From: a virus
Taxonomy: Duplodnaviria > Caudoviricetes
Virus record (IMG/VR): IMGVR_UViG_3300048901_000130
Span: 1 to 28,605 of that record
Reading direction: 5' to 3' (one strand)
DNA length: 28,605 nucleotides
The position numbers and the translations under genes are program-made. Every line of letters begins with the position of its first letter. The first letter of the stretch is position 1. Below the pieces are notes generated by a model that was not told the origin of the DNA, made no database searches, and was given only the letters and a program-made list of their open reading frames with translations. This document shows positions 152 through 10,957 of the stretch, in pieces.

Positions 152-450
152 GCGACCGCGTTCCTCTCGGCAACAGGCGAGCAAACGAGACCTTCGAGGT
201 GAAACACGGCTCGCACGCCGTGACTGTCACCGTCGGTTATTATGCCAACGGCAGCCTCGGCGAAGTGTTTGTCAGCGATCCGAAGGTGGGATCGAGCATG
301 GAAGCCATCGCCCGCGATGCTGCGGTGCTGCTCAGTCTCTCCATGCAATTCGGCGTGCCCATCGACACCATGCGCCACGCCATCACCCGCGAGCAGGACG
401 GATCGCCCTCAAGCATCATCGGGGCGGTGCTGGACCAGTTGGGGAAGTGA
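148..450 (+). CDS. Stand-alone TSCPD-domain protein (class II ribonucleotide reductase C-terminal-like)
   Basis: 100 aa with R..L..RR, VTVGYY..G.LGEVF, LLSLSMQFGVP and SSIIG motifs resembling the NrdJ C-terminal domain. GAGG RBS upstream. Confidence 0.7.
   Translation: MSDRVPLGNRRANETFEVKHGSHAVTVTVGYYANGSLGEVFVSDPKVGSSMEAIARDAAVLLSLSMQFGVPIDTMRHAITREQDGSPSSIIGAVLDQLGK
421..450 (+). repeat. Degenerate direct repeat, copy 1 (encodes GAVLDQLGK*)
   Basis: ggggcggtgctggaccagttggggaagtga; 24/30 nt identical to 1304-1333. Confidence 0.8.
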
Positions 451-452
451 CC

Positions 453-707
453 ATGATTTGCAGATATGAAGTTGAAGTTCGAGCGCAGTGCCCGGTAAAC
501 CCGGACGATCGCGACATGTATGCCTTTGTCATCGAGACGCAGGCGATGATCGAGGTCGAGCGCATCGTGGCGTTCTTTGGGGAGCACGCCGGAACGCGCA
601 ACGTCTTTCAGGAGGCCCTGACGCAGAAGTGCGCCGTCACACTTGGCGCGAAGGTGATCAGTGTCGGCTGGCACTCGGGCGTGAAAGTCACCTGCGAAGC
701 ACCGTGA
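453..707 (+). CDS. QueF-like (T-fold) protein, probable preQ0 amidinotransferase
   Basis: 84 aa from ATG 453. CPVNPDDRD (catalytic Cys/Asp position), FQEALT (cf. QueF FHE) and a C-terminal HSGVKV strand. Lacks the QueF ESKSLK NADPH motif. Confidence 0.7.
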   Translation: MICRYEVEVRAQCPVNPDDRDMYAFVIETQAMIEVERIVAFFGEHAGTRNVFQEALTQKCAVTLGAKVISVGWHSGVKVTCEAP

Positions 708-1333
708 TCTATCTGAGCGGGACCATCCGCCCCAACATGAAGCCGCACCCGATGCTGGGATTCATGAACACTCCGAGGCGGCGCGAGGACGTGCCCGATG
801 GTGCTGCGTGGGCGGCCGACACCGGAATCTTCGGTTGCCCGCAACTGCACGACGACGACGCCTATCTGCGGTGGCTCGACGGGAAGCCGCGAGAGCGCTG
901 CCTGTTCGCGACCGCGCCCGACGTGGTGGGCGATCACGCGGCGACGCTGGTGCGCTCGATCCCGATGCTGCGGCGCATCCGCGACGCCGGTTACCGCCCG
1001 GCGCTGGTCGCGCAGGATGGTTGGGACCCGCGGTCGGTCCCGTGGGAGGACTTCGACGTGTTGTTCGTCGGTGGCACCAACGGCTTCAAGCTCGGCGTGG
1101 CCGGGTTCGCGGTCGACCAGGCGCTCGCGCGCGGCAAGGCGGCTCACATGGGACGCGTCAATTCATACAAGCGCCTGCGAGTGGCAGCGGCGCTCGGCTG
1201 CGATAGCGCAGACGGCACGTTCTTGAAGTTCGGCCCCGATGTGAACGAGCCGCGCTTGCTGCGTTGGTTCGAGCAACTGAGGGCTGAGCCGTTGCTGCCG
1301 TTGGGCGCCGTGCTCGATCAATTGTGGAAGTGA
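704..1333 (+). CDS. TGT-fold DpdA-like deazaguanine DNA transglycosylase
   Basis: 209 aa from GTG 704 (GTGA overlap with the upstream stop). Ordered motifs AADTGIF, APDVVGD, VAQDG, FVGG, HMGRVN, DSADGT parallel the TGT/DpdA barrel motifs. Confidence 0.65.
   Translation: MIYLSGTIRPNMKPHPMLGFMNTPRRREDVPDGAAWAADTGIFGCPQLHDDDAYLRWLDGKPRERCLFATAPDVVGDHAATLVRSIPMLRRIRDAGYRPALVAQDGWDPRSVPWEDFDVLFVGGTNGFKLGVAGFAVDQALARGKAAHMGRVNSYKRLRVAAALGCDSADGTFLKFGPDVNEPRLLRWFEQLRAEPLLPLGAVLDQLWK
1304..1333 (+). repeat. Degenerate direct repeat, copy 2 (encodes GAVLDQLWK*)
   Basis: ggcgccgtgctcgatcaattgtggaagtga; 5 of the 6 mismatches to copy 1 are synonymous third positions. Confidence 0.8.
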
Positions 1334-1348
1334 ACGCAATGGAAACTA

Positions 1349-1391
1349 ACAAACAATGTTGGCGACGCAATCAATGCGGGACTGCGTCGCC
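1349..1391 (-). terminator. Probable terminator hairpin between convergent genes
   Basis: Perfect 9-bp stem GGCGACGCA (1361-1369) / TGCGTCGCC (1383-1391), followed on the - strand by aacattgtttgtt. Lies just downstream of the micro-ORF stop. Confidence 0.55.
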
Positions 1392-1400
1392 GTCGTTCGG

Positions 1401-1493
1401 TTATCGGCCAGGCTGTCCGGGCTGGTTCGGTTGTCCTGGCTGTCCGGGCTTCGGGTTCGGATCGCCCGGGTGCGGGTCCTTGGGGTCTGGCAT
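1401..1493 (-). CDS. 30-aa Pro/Gly/Gln-rich micro-protein
   Basis: MPDPKDPHPGDPNPKPGQPGQPNQPGQPGR*. Perfect AAGGAGG RBS (1505-1499) 5 nt from the ATG, with a promoter motif upstream and a hairpin downstream. Confidence 0.65.
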   Translation of the reverse strand: MPDPKDPHPGDPNPKPGQPGQPNQPGQPGR

Positions 1494-7668: not shown

Positions 7669-8217
7669 ATGAAACGTCTGGCACTTGCCTTCGCTGTACT
7701 GTCGGCCTTGGCGACGCCTGGCCACGCCAACGTGATCCAAGACCTCGGCGTCAATCCGACATCGGCGGCTGGCGCATTCAGTCACTCGCCCGGAGCCGGG
7801 CCGTTCGATGATCAACTGACCTTCCGGCTGGTCGGCGGGCCGCAGTTCATCACCATCGCGTCGGTGACCAACACCTTCGCCGATCCGGTTGCGGACTTCA
7901 TCGCCAACTTCAGCGGGTCTGTTTTCAATACCGTCGACGGCATCATCGGCAACGGCAACGATGTGCGCGTCATCGGTCCGGTTGCCGCCACGGCCTGTCC
8001 GCTGACGCCGGATTGCCAGGGCTTTGCCGGGTCGGCACTGCTCAATGCAGGCAGCTATTACTTGGATATCAGCGGCACTGCCGGCGCGACCGCAGGCTAC
8101 GGTGGCAACCTCTCAGTTGCCGCGGTGCCTGGGCCGCTCGCCGGTACTGGGCTGCCTGGCTTAATCGCCGGGTTCATGCTGCTCGGGCTGCGCCGTTTGC
8201 GACGACGCTCTCGCTAA
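7669..8217 (+). CDS. Secreted FxDxF-type PEP-CTERM-like (VPGP-CTERM) exosortase substrate
   Basis: Signal peptide MKRLALAFAVLSALATPGHA, FDDQLTF motif, L.AGSYYL.ISG...GYGGNL, then VPGPLAGTGLPGL + hydrophobic helix + RRLRRRSR. AGGAG RBS. Confidence 0.85.
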   Translation: MKRLALAFAVLSALATPGHANVIQDLGVNPTSAAGAFSHSPGAGPFDDQLTFRLVGGPQFITIASVTNTFADPVADFIANFSGSVFNTVDGIIGNGNDVRVIGPVAATACPLTPDCQGFAGSALLNAGSYYLDISGTAGATAGYGGNLSVAAVPGPLAGTGLPGLIAGFMLLGLRRLRRRSR

Positions 8218-8824: not shown

Positions 8825-10957
8825 ATGCGTAAGCGTTTGCGCCAGGGCGATCTCTATCCCGACGACACCGAATCCCACGATGACTTCATCTCTCGCTGTA
8901 CCGATGAGATCGGCGACGAGGAAGTTTGCGAACTCATCTGGGAAGACGCCTGGGATACGGAAAGCGCCGGCGGCATCCTGCACAAGACACATGCCGGCAA
9001 AGTAAACGGGCGTGAATACGTGCTGTCGGACGAGACGCCCGATCGCATGGGCGACGTCATCATGGCCGATGGCTGGGACATCACCGACTTCAAGAAAAAC
9101 CCCATCGCCCTGTTCGGACATCAAAGCGGATTTCCGATCGGCACCTGGAACAACGTTCGCGTTGTCGACAAGCAACTGCGCGGTACGCTCGCGCTCGCGG
9201 CCGAGGGCACCAGCCCGCGTATCGATGAAATCCGCAAGCTCGTGGATGCCGGCATTCTGCGCGCCGTCAGCGTCGGCTTCAGCCCGAAGGAGTCGCGACC
9301 GCGGCCGGAAACTGATTACGGGGTGTTTTTCACCAAGGCCGAACTTATGGAGACCAGCCTGGTCTCGGTGCCGGCCAATCCGAACGCGCTGCAGATCGCC
9401 AAGTCACTCAACATTTCACCTGCGTTCATCGATGTCGTTTTCGCCGGGAAAGGCAATGGAAACGGCATCCGACGACGCAGGTTCACCGGCGGGCAAGCCA
9501 ATACGATACCGCAAGCTAGAAAGGGCACGACCATGTCGTCGTATGCTCAACGCATCACCGCTACCGAACAGCGCATCAACGCGCTGCGCGATCAACTCAA
9601 CGAGCACTGGACCAGGACCGACGAAACCAACATCAGCGACGAGCAGTTGGCGACCGGCAACGGGCTCACCGACCGGATCACCCAGGAGGAGCGCGCGCTC
9701 GCCGGCCTGCGCGACGCCGAACGGCACCTCGGTGCCACTTCGGACGATGCCAACAGCAACGGCAGCCGCGCGCTTGCCGTGCGAACCACCACGGCGGCAA
9801 CGGTGGCGGCCACTGCATTGTCGAGCACGCGGCCGTTTAGCATGCCGCCGAAAAAGCCACTGAGCGCACTCGATCACATGGTGCGCGCCGGAACTGTGCA
9901 GCTGCTCGCGCATCGCGATCGGATGCCGGTTGCCTTGAAGATGCGGGAAATCTACGGCGAGGACGAAGGCACTCGCGCGATGCTCGAATGGTCAACGCGC
10001 GCGACCTCGACGATCGCGACCACGACGCAAACCGGTTGGGCCGCCGAGCTCGCCCAGACGCTGTTCACCGCTTTCATGGAAGTGCTCTATCCGAAGTCGG
10101 TCTATCCGCGGCTGGCAGCGAAGGGGTTGTCGCTCTCATTTGGGAACTCCGGCAAAATCCTCATTCCCACGCGCGCGACCACGCCGACCATCGCAGGATC
10201 GTTCGTCGGCGAAGGATTGCCAATTCCAGTCCGCCAGGGTTTGTTTACTTCGCAAACGTTGACGCCGAAGAAGATGGCGGTCATCACCACCTGGACCCGG
10301 GAAATCCAGGACCACTCGGTGCCGGCGATCGAAGGCTTGCTGCGCGATGCAGTGCAGGAAGACACGGCAATCTCGCTCGACTCGGTACTGCTCGATGCCA
10401 ACGCCGCGACCGTCGTGCGTCCGGCCGGCATCCTCAACGGCGTGGCTGGCTTGACGCCCACCGCCGGCGGCGGCTTCACGGCTCTGACCGCCGATATCAA
10501 GCAAATCTCGGGTGCCTTGCTCACCGGCACCAGGGGCAATGTTCGCAACCCGGTTTGGCTGATGAACCCGCAGCAGATTAACAGTGCTCTCTATGTTGCT
10601 GCTCCTGGTGCCGGGGTGTTCCCGTATCGTGGCGAAATCCAAGCCGGGCAGTTGGGCGGCTGGCCGATCATCGACTCGGGTACGGTTCCGGCCGGTACCG
10701 TGATTGCTATCGATGCGGCGGACTTCGTGGCGGTGGGCGGCGACGCGCCACGCTTCGAAATCAGCGATCAGGCGACGTTGCACATGGAAGACACGACGCC
10801 GCTCGATATCGGCACGGCGGGCTCGCCGGCGACCGTGGCGGCGCCAGTCAAATCGATGTGGCAGACCGACTCGCTCGCTCTTCGGCTGATCCTGCCCACC
10901 AACTGGACCATCCGGCGCGCGGGCGTCGTCGCCTGGGTCGCCGGCGTCACCTGGTAA
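8825..10957 (+). CDS. Prohead protease (HK97/S78 family) fused to major capsid protein
   Basis: DRMGDVI, NPIALFGH, LRAVSVGF and ELMETSLVSVPANPNA protease motifs, then a coiled-coil delta-like region and HK97-fold motifs (FVGEG, LTPKKMAVI, PAGILNG, WLMNP, SMWQTD). AAGGAGG RBS. Confidence 0.93.
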   Translation: MRKRLRQGDLYPDDTESHDDFISRCTDEIGDEEVCELIWEDAWDTESAGGILHKTHAGKVNGREYVLSDETPDRMGDVIMADGWDITDFKKNPIALFGHQSGFPIGTWNNVRVVDKQLRGTLALAAEGTSPRIDEIRKLVDAGILRAVSVGFSPKESRPRPETDYGVFFTKAELMETSLVSVPANPNALQIAKSLNISPAFIDVVFAGKGNGNGIRRRRFTGGQANTIPQARKGTTMSSYAQRITATEQRINALRDQLNEHWTRTDETNISDEQLATGNGLTDRITQEERALAGLRDAERHLGATSDDANSNGSRALAVRTTTAATVAATALSSTRPFSMPPKKPLSALDHMVRAGTVQLLAHRDRMPVALKMREIYGEDEGTRAMLEWSTRATSTIATTTQTGWAAELAQTLFTAFMEVLYPKSVYPRLAAKGLSLSFGNSGKILIPTRATTPTIAGSFVGEGLPIPVRQGLFTSQTLTPKKMAVITTWTREIQDHSVPAIEGLLRDAVQEDTAISLDSVLLDANAATVVRPAGILNGVAGLTPTAGGGFTALTADIKQISGALLTGTRGNVRNPVWLMNPQQINSALYVAAPGAGVFPYRGEIQAGQLGGWPIIDSGTVPAGTVIAIDAADFVAVGGDAPRFEISDQATLHMEDTTPLDIGTAGSPATVAAPVKSMWQTDSLALRLILPTNWTIRRAGVVAWVAGVTW

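Follow-up and report, generated by a model that had tools for sequence, protein, structure and literature searches.

The window analysed here, a stretch of 28,605 nucleotides, belongs to a virus record with an estimated completeness of 53%, and its source phage occurs in root and soil metagenomes. Near the start of the window lie two small genes, ORF A and ORF B (Table 1), each enclosed in a longer, mis-started open reading frame (114-707 and 488-1333, respectively). An earlier note on this DNA had picked them out of these frames as a translationally coupled pair, and its gene calls hold: homologue alignments begin at residue 1 for both proteins, which fixes their starts.

ORF A and ORF B are real genes. 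An E-value of 0.001 or lower was reached by 298 of 299 ORF A candidates and by 2,888 of 4,052 ORF B candidates, the relatives of ORF A amount to 424 representatives at 50% identity, and mean pS/pN was 0.71/0.20 for ORF A (12 pairs) and 0.65/0.28 for ORF B (11 pairs). The homologues and the excess of pS over pN rule out shadow ORFs, and contigs from runs X2 and X8 that cover both genes at about 99% identity rule out an assembly artefact. A contig from run X16 matches the window up to position 450 and again from 1420, with 494 different letters in between, so that a related phage carries other content in exactly this slot; the evidence for the slot is this one contig, in which the short side of the joint measures 36 letters.

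Table 1. Features of the ORF A-ORF B locus, in window coordinates
Feature	Position	Strand	Remarks
Purine-rich ribosome-binding-like stretch GGGGAAG	441..447	+	Ahead of the ORF A start; overlaps the end of the TSCPD gene
Exchangeable slot containing ORF A and ORF B	451..1419	+	Related contig, run X16
ORF A, 84 aa, predicted minimal T-fold, QueF-L closest, phrog_37496 family	453..707	+	
ORF A key residues: C13, D21, E36, Q53, E54, H74			
GTGA, in which the ORF B start overlaps the ORF A stop and couples the genes	704..707	+	Sequence
ORF B, 209 aa, predicted minimal DpdA/TGT-like (beta/alpha)8 barrel, phrog_15826	704..1333	+	
ORF B key residues: D39, F43, D73, Q104, G123-G124, K129, H148-M149-G150-R151, N153, D170			

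Upstream of ORF A lies a TSCPD-domain gene (148-450; PF12637, E 5.5e-7), whose stand-alone product of 100 aa resembles the C-terminal part of class II ribonucleotide reductase. In near-identical phages (contig L007, 2834-3733, and the X2 and X8 contigs) a 299-aa radical-SAM ORF is inserted directly 5' of ORF A, and a duplication of the TSCPD gene's 3' end flanks it. Seven further loci have a comparable radical-SAM gene in the vicinity of ORF B, and this ORF may be a mosaic insertion or an additional modifying enzyme. The spacer 3' of ORF B (1400-1500) contains short tandem repeats, with a 9-base insertion at 1428 in a related contig. A NusG-like gene, a ParB-methyltransferase gene and the terminase genes follow in that order; the methyltransferase starts at 2389 or 2404, about 1.06 kb from ORF B, close to the distance of 1 kb given in the earlier note. 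We rejected a functional link between the pair and this methyltransferase, given that its family, phrog_498, is a common packaging-region gene and that the NusG-like gene intervenes. Comparison of the terminase gave a best match of 45.6% and indicated no host. Elsewhere in the window, as read from the translations, positions 8825-10957 form a single ORF of 710 aa resembling a fusion of prohead protease and major capsid protein, and 7669-8217, which lie among the packaging genes, encode a protein of secreted appearance that ends in a VP-x-P tail like a sorting signal.

ORF A carries the features listed in the earlier note, namely C13-P14, D21, IEVERI (33-38) and FQE..T (52-57). Single-sequence scans of ORF A and ORF B against Pfam, NCBIfam, PADLOC and PDB sequences returned nothing informative, with no PADLOC match for either protein, and a search of ORF A against 50,697 phage records gave zero matches. 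We therefore describe the family through a wide alignment (A3) of 140 rows, 132 of which match phrog_37496, a family without assigned function. C13, Q53, E54 and H74 are invariant in it, D21 and E36 are kept in 138 rows, and all six residues occur together in 136. Against the PDB, the A3 profile matched QueF-L (5jyx, E 3.4e-6), with GTP cyclohydrolase I next at E-values of 0.03 and above; only this wide profile reached QueF-L, the close-family profiles A1 and A2 having no PDB match. The profile alignment pairs the residues of ORF A and QueF-L as C13/C21, D21/D28, E36/E46 and E54/E63. Gln53 and His74 replace QueF-L His62 and Tyr90, which we take to be part of its ammonium pocket, and none of the 140 members has His at the first of these positions or Tyr at the second. 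The combination of Gln-Glu with this His is common to GTP cyclohydrolase I. The zinc ligands of FolE are a Cys-x-His-His and a second Cys; we rejected ORF A as a FolE surrogate since it has none of these ligands, C13 being followed by P-V-N/D and H74 by S-G, as against HYC in FolE.

The predicted structure of ORF A (pLDDT 94.7) runs strand-strand-helix-helix-strand-strand, and QueF-L takes all ten best Foldseek rows (TMq 0.76-0.79), so that the T-fold of QueF-L type proposed in the earlier note is borne out by profile and model. Modelled in three copies, ORF A scored 0.47 against 0.00 for the best control, relative to a mark attained by 20 of the 30 solved homo-pairs and one of the 23 single chains; the score may pass through likeness to solved T-fold rings, and three copies were modelled as against the QueF-L homodecamer, whose active sites lie between subunits. 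Across these runs contact agreement was at least 94% and partner pLDDT at least 80, with head-to-tail joining in which E36 of one copy shares an interface with E54 and H74 of the next. The protein is net acidic (8 K+R, 11 D+E), which does not suggest DNA binding. By sequence profile and model, ORF A would be QueF-L-like in its fold and in its first catalytic step, yet not a member by its full active site.

ORF B shows TGT-like motifs in the order that the earlier note had given, DTGIF (39), PDVV (72), QDG (104), VGG (122), HMG (148) and DSADG (167). It matches phrog_15826, a family without assigned function, at 5e-60, and 12 of 27 phage records bearing an ORF B relative label it "DpdA-like tRNA-guanine transglycosylase"; a cluster look-up placed one relative in a Xanthobacteraceae MAG. 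Its predicted structure, at pLDDT 95.8, is a barrel of eight strands. The first four Foldseek rows are other barrels, with TGT fifth and DpdA (7ui4) eleventh. In the VIA-align comparison, which covered Foldseek-ranked structures, TGT holds 47 of the 50 best rows, with Z about 14.5 and an rmsd of 3.6 over 199 aligned residues, but pyruvate kinase II and ribulose-phosphate epimerase score equally well. On its own, the predicted structure is suggestive of TGT/DpdA and not diagnostic.

Profile comparisons are more specific as to kin. The motifs fell in register when the ORF B profile was matched to that of the MED16/7-11 DpdA group (95.2%, E 2.6e-8); together with the barrel, this match agrees with the DpdA/TGT-like assignment of the earlier note. 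The MED16-group profile in turn matched the DpdA of phage 9g at 1.5e-10, a protein that the ORF B profile matched weakly (E 4e-4, one sequence). Four bacterial TGTs gave no match to the ORF B profile (0.2%), and Pfam TGT matched none of the 116 members of the family alignment A1. Comparison with one representative each of the other DpdA types, nt-1 DpdA2 (E 0.076), phiST CGPG_00065 for DpdA3 (0.05) and HVTV1_69 for DpdA4 (0.095), gave nothing significant; in the Atlas, DUF6610 (DpdA4) is the nearest named cluster at 0.90, which we treat as a lead only.

A CxCxxC zinc subdomain is a feature of bacterial tRNA TGTs, and its motif occurs in none of the 172 rows of the ORF B alignment (not dereplicated). 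In these same rows the aspartates D39 (169), D73 (172) and D170 (171) are kept, as are the positions of the base sandwich (F/Y43 in 168, M/V149 in 155). DpdA and TGT share three invariant aspartates, serving as acid/base, base-edge ligand and nucleophile, and a Phe and Leu/Met base sandwich (PMC10164549). Q104 is found in 172 of 172 rows and aligns opposite the His-bearing segment of MED16 DpdA; the base-pocket His of DpdA1, the type of 9g, CAjan and 7-11 (9g H196, S. Montevideo H181), is not found in the ORF B family. K129 is likewise present in all 172 rows, at the register of the glutamate in TGT GGL...E as judged by motif spacing only. ORF B thereby appears to represent a large, nameless subfamily of about 200 aa, with a median length of 201 aa and a GRVN motif, that is missing from the published DpdA tables examined.

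The pairing of the two families, whose conservation the earlier note left to a neighbourhood survey, is upheld by that survey. The 78 ORF A loci found fall into 56 groups at 95% identity, 31 of which have flanks of 700 bases or more on each side; the other 25, with shorter flanks, were excluded from the neighbour count, and the set is biased to close relatives. A DpdA-type gene lies within 1.5 kb of ORF A in 28 of the 31 groups (21 of ORF B type, 8 of MED16 type, one group having both) and was not found in the other 3. Adjacent pairs, counted without dereplication, share a strand in 63 of 63 cases and lie within 120 bases of each other in 52. Vut_1 and QueE each accompany ORF A in 4 of the 31 groups, and no match to QueC, QueD or FolE was seen in any ORF A locus.

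Seen from the side of ORF B, a queuosine-pathway gene is the neighbour in 43 of 50 viral groups drawn from the best 80 of 550 loci (Vut_1 34, ORF A 9) and in 37 of 54 genomic groups drawn from the best 80 of 208 (Vut_1 35, ORF A 1). Pfam confirmed the identity of Vut_1, which we take to be YhhQ, in all 4 members tested. YhhQ is a preQ0 transporter family (PMC5699537, PMC7544227). These queuosine-pathway neighbours link the two families to the metabolism of 7-deazaguanines without recourse to their folds. A tree set of 126 rows, biased in that its rows were drawn from separate ORF A and ORF B queries, comprises 25 cases of ORF A without Vut_1, 70 of Vut_1 without ORF A and 4 of both. In a quick tree the ORF A partners sit on several branches and at least four changes are forced, which gives no order of events.

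Other arrangements were seen in the same surveys. Many hosts of the ORF B family are actinobacteria, and an ORF B-type gene with Vut_1 is common in genomes of Streptomyces and other actinobacteria (L169-L248; 35 of 54 groups among the best 80 of 208 loci); a large Streptomyces subset of ORF B-type genes has no recognised partner. A second small QueF-like family, of the His-Glu type and about 105-110 aa long (L002, 3607-3936; L059, L069, L070, L077, L175, L227), reads ELHSLR at the position of the QueF NADPH motif and is placed between Vut_1 and ORF B in phages of actinobacteria, Aoka among them. Locus L084 (37-1346 and 2726-3292) holds three ORF B-type genes, one of them split, and two queC within 4 kb. 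Sonali, phiG7 (in which the gene is split) and R29Z have an ORF B-type gene in or near a full preQ0 cluster, alongside a canonical DpdA. In the Seuratvirus phiG7 this second gene (L264, 5932-6524) is frameshifted, lies between the clamp and DNA polymerase genes and adjoins the canonical dpdA; the R29Z copy is intact.

As to the source of the base, no match to folE, queD, queE, queC or Vut_1 was found in the window, in line with the absence of the four synthesis genes recorded in the earlier note, and none to que genes or Vut_1 in the 3.7 kb upstream on the near-identical contig L007. QueC, FolE and QueD are also absent from five of five pair-bearing virus records, four of which are at least 90% complete. 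The sole bacterial genome found with the pair, an Acetobacteraceae MAG, contains QueC and TGT; a strong QueC match is missing from 3 of 5 host genomes checked, whose completeness is not reported. Going by these gene contents, host supply of the base is likely for the two-gene module, favoured by the four near-complete relatives without folE, queD and queC. The host scavenging of preQ0 put forward in the earlier note therefore gains support for the module and can be no more than presumed for this very phage, about half of whose genome is missing.

We propose, as reasonably probable on the strength of profiles, predicted structures and neighbourhoods, that the pair is a swappable phage module in which ORF B would insert preQ0 in place of guanine and ORF A would convert its nitrile. 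The base would quite likely be drawn from the host queuosine pathway. ORF B would exchange some guanines of replicated phage DNA for preQ0, very probably by the double displacement of TGT and DpdA enzymes, in which D170 would be the nucleophile, D39 would act as acid/base and D73 would hold the edge of the base; DNA is taken as the target because the nearest characterised kin of ORF B are phage DpdAs. ORF A would likely form a ring with active sites between subunits, in which C13 makes a thioimide with preQ0. QueF and QueF-L have in common a Cys thioimide and an Asp acid/base, and QueF-L uses ammonia as nucleophile and preQ0-tRNA as substrate (PMC5485725). Ammonia might similarly resolve the thioimide of ORF A after insertion, as QueF-L does on tRNA, a step we put forward tentatively. 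By this analogy dG+ would be the single most likely product, at a confidence somewhat short of even, with the amide or the acid next. It is not established, because all 140 members carry Gln and His at the positions of QueF-L His62 and Tyr90 and because published product predictions have failed: the base was mispredicted from gene content for Dp-1, HVTV-1, 7-11 and STSV-2 (PMC6884629, PMC10516641). Mycobacterium phage Orion, which has DpdA alone, showed no modification (PMC6884629), which counts against our explanation given the many actinobacterial hosts of ORF B. The purpose of the module is presumed to be protection from host nucleases. It is no more than presumed because low-level dADG in MED16 did not noticeably affect the restriction enzymes tested (PMC8306585); the same result tells against the layered anti-restriction that the earlier note had read from the position of the ParB-methyltransferase alone.

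Other readings keep the module and change its chemistry or its substrate. ORF A may add water to the thioimide, as a nitrile hydratase or nitrilase would, with H74 as water activator and dADG or dCDG as product. The invariant Q53 and H74 in place of the QueF-L residues would fit such a step, the invariant K129 of ORF B, at its spacing-based register, would suit a neutral or anionic 7-substituent, and QueE, which makes CDG, accompanies ORF A in loci that have no QueC, QueD or FolE; in the literature available, no enzyme is assigned to dADG in DpdA-only phages or to dCDG in STSV-2. We nonetheless consider this route unlikely, since the closest structure to ORF A is an amidinotransferase and the MED16-type DpdAs paired with ORF A lack the lysine. 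Furthermore, MED16 and 7-11 make dADG and a search for ORF A in both, run with no positive control, found nothing, so ORF A may be dispensable for dADG. Alternatively, ORF A might act on the free base before insertion, trapping or converting cytoplasmic preQ0 so that it is kept from host QueF and supplied to ORF B, the role that Vut_1 has in other members. That ORF A and Vut_1 mostly alternate in the biased tree set, that ORF A is acidic and that the free base is the substrate of bacterial and phage QueF (PMC10516641) speak for this. It appears quite improbable to us given that the nearest relative, QueF-L, takes preQ0 in tRNA (PMC5485725), that ORF A and Vut_1 do co-occur, and that K129 should be unfavourable to a free base carrying positive charge, as G+ and preQ1 do.

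Two further readings depart more widely from the proposed module. We hold it very improbable that ORF B acts on tRNA of the host or the phage, or does no more than excise guanine, with the pair modulating translation or damaging foreign nucleic acid: Q104 is of TGT type, where 9g and MED16 DpdA have His, and the ORF B-type genes that Sonali, phiG7 and R29Z keep besides a canonical DpdA may mean a different job, but the family has no CxCxxC zinc motif, ORF B is about 160 aa shorter than TGT, and its sequence links lead to DNA-acting DpdAs and not to TGT. To ORF A as a stripped NADPH-dependent preQ0 reductase, which would leave dPreQ1 in DNA, we give next to no weight. Phage proteins initially named QueF-L, in Dp-1 and HVTV-1, did accompany dPreQ1 (PMC6884629), and 6 of the 140 ORF A members match Pfam QueF weakly. 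However, the Dp-1 and HVTV-1 proteins retain E(S/L)K(S/A)hK, the core of the QueF reductase NADPH motif E(S/L)K(S/A)hK(L/Y)(Y/F/W) (PMC10516641), whereas E[SL]K[SA] occurs anywhere in just 4 of the 140 members and is absent from ORF A, which reads ERIVAF; we rejected the reductase on this ground.

The proposed insertion and nitrile conversion can be set beside several known systems. QueF-L of Pyrobaculum calidifontis (5jyx, 5k0p) resembles ORF A in its single T-fold, the equivalents of Cys21, Asp28, Glu46 and Glu63, the absence of the NADPH motif and the self-association predicted for ORF A. It differs in length (109 aa against 84, at about 20% identity), in His62 and Tyr90, and in acting on tRNA, whereas ORF A is viral and paired with a DpdA, so that its presumed substrate is DNA. 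Enterobacteria phage 9g (DpdA1, FolE, QueD, QueE, Gat-QueC) likewise combines a DpdA with a nitrile-converting enzyme to give dG+, but has its own preQ0 synthesis, Gat-QueC and a DpdA of 317 aa. In DpdABC of Salmonella Montevideo, too, preQ0 insertion is followed by a separate enzyme that alters the nitrile in DNA, DpdC giving dADG (PMC10164549); its DpdA has 413 aa (7ui4) and depends on the DpdB ATPase.

Closest in logic is the "DpdA-only" group (Hutinet 2019 group 3), including Salmonella phage 7-11 and Pantoea phage MED16, which have no preQ0 synthesis genes and for which host or salvage supply has been proposed. Both contain low dADG (PMC6884629, PMC8306585). Their DpdA is the nearest characterised relative of ORF B (95%), and MED16-type DpdAs stand beside ORF A-family genes in 8 of the 31 groups, and also in Pseudomonas phage Epa33; it differs in its 234-261 aa, as against the shorter ORF B family, and ORF B has Gln for His, K129 and GRVN. 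In SEA-PHAGES, genes called "DpdA-like tRNA-guanine transglycosylase" (Sonali 81, Aoka 40, cluster P mycobacteriophages) belong to the ORF B family at about 50% identity. The name is a database label, for which our searches turned up no experiment, and what accompanies these genes is Vut_1, in some cases along with a longer QueF-like protein of the His-Glu type, instead of ORF A.

Earlier publications already cover DpdA-only phages, supply of the base by host or salvage, and the pairing of DpdA with YhhQ, and the two genes described here would combine a known logic with nameless parts and a putative product. The small, under-described subfamilies suspected in the earlier note are consistent with two phrogs that have no assigned function and with the supplements examined: five names of ORF B-bearing phages are missing from those of 2019, in which the control Orion is present, and six from sheet DS1 of the 2023 supplement, which is not a full DpdA census. 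We found no literature on either family, subscription papers lying outside the scope of the search. The ORF B family has thousands of members, with cultured representatives in the cluster P mycobacteriophages, Sonali, Aoka, ReqiPine5 and CRP-701; an ORF A relative is present in Epa33.

Finally, according to Cui et al. 2023 (PMC10516641), no phage QueF-family protein could be aligned with QueF-L. The ORF A family does align with it, which would make it the first candidate that we could find for a genuine QueF-L analogue in phages, one that works on DNA. If true, a two-gene writer of 881 bases would be the smallest tool for placing a hypermodified guanine in DNA. The largest published group of DpdA phages is without recognised partner genes or side-chain-setting enzymes. 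In the most far-reaching reading, which we regard as doubtful when taken whole, ORF B would stand for a fifth DpdA subfamily, nameless and highly abundant, which at about 200 aa would be smaller than any so far and is marked by invariant Gln, Lys and GRVN, and ORF A would be a T-fold enzyme with a new Cys-Gln-His chemistry. The pair would then write a 7-deazaguanine into phage DNA by an undescribed route or as an undescribed base, and ORF A-like enzymes would explain the side chains of the "DpdA-only" phages.
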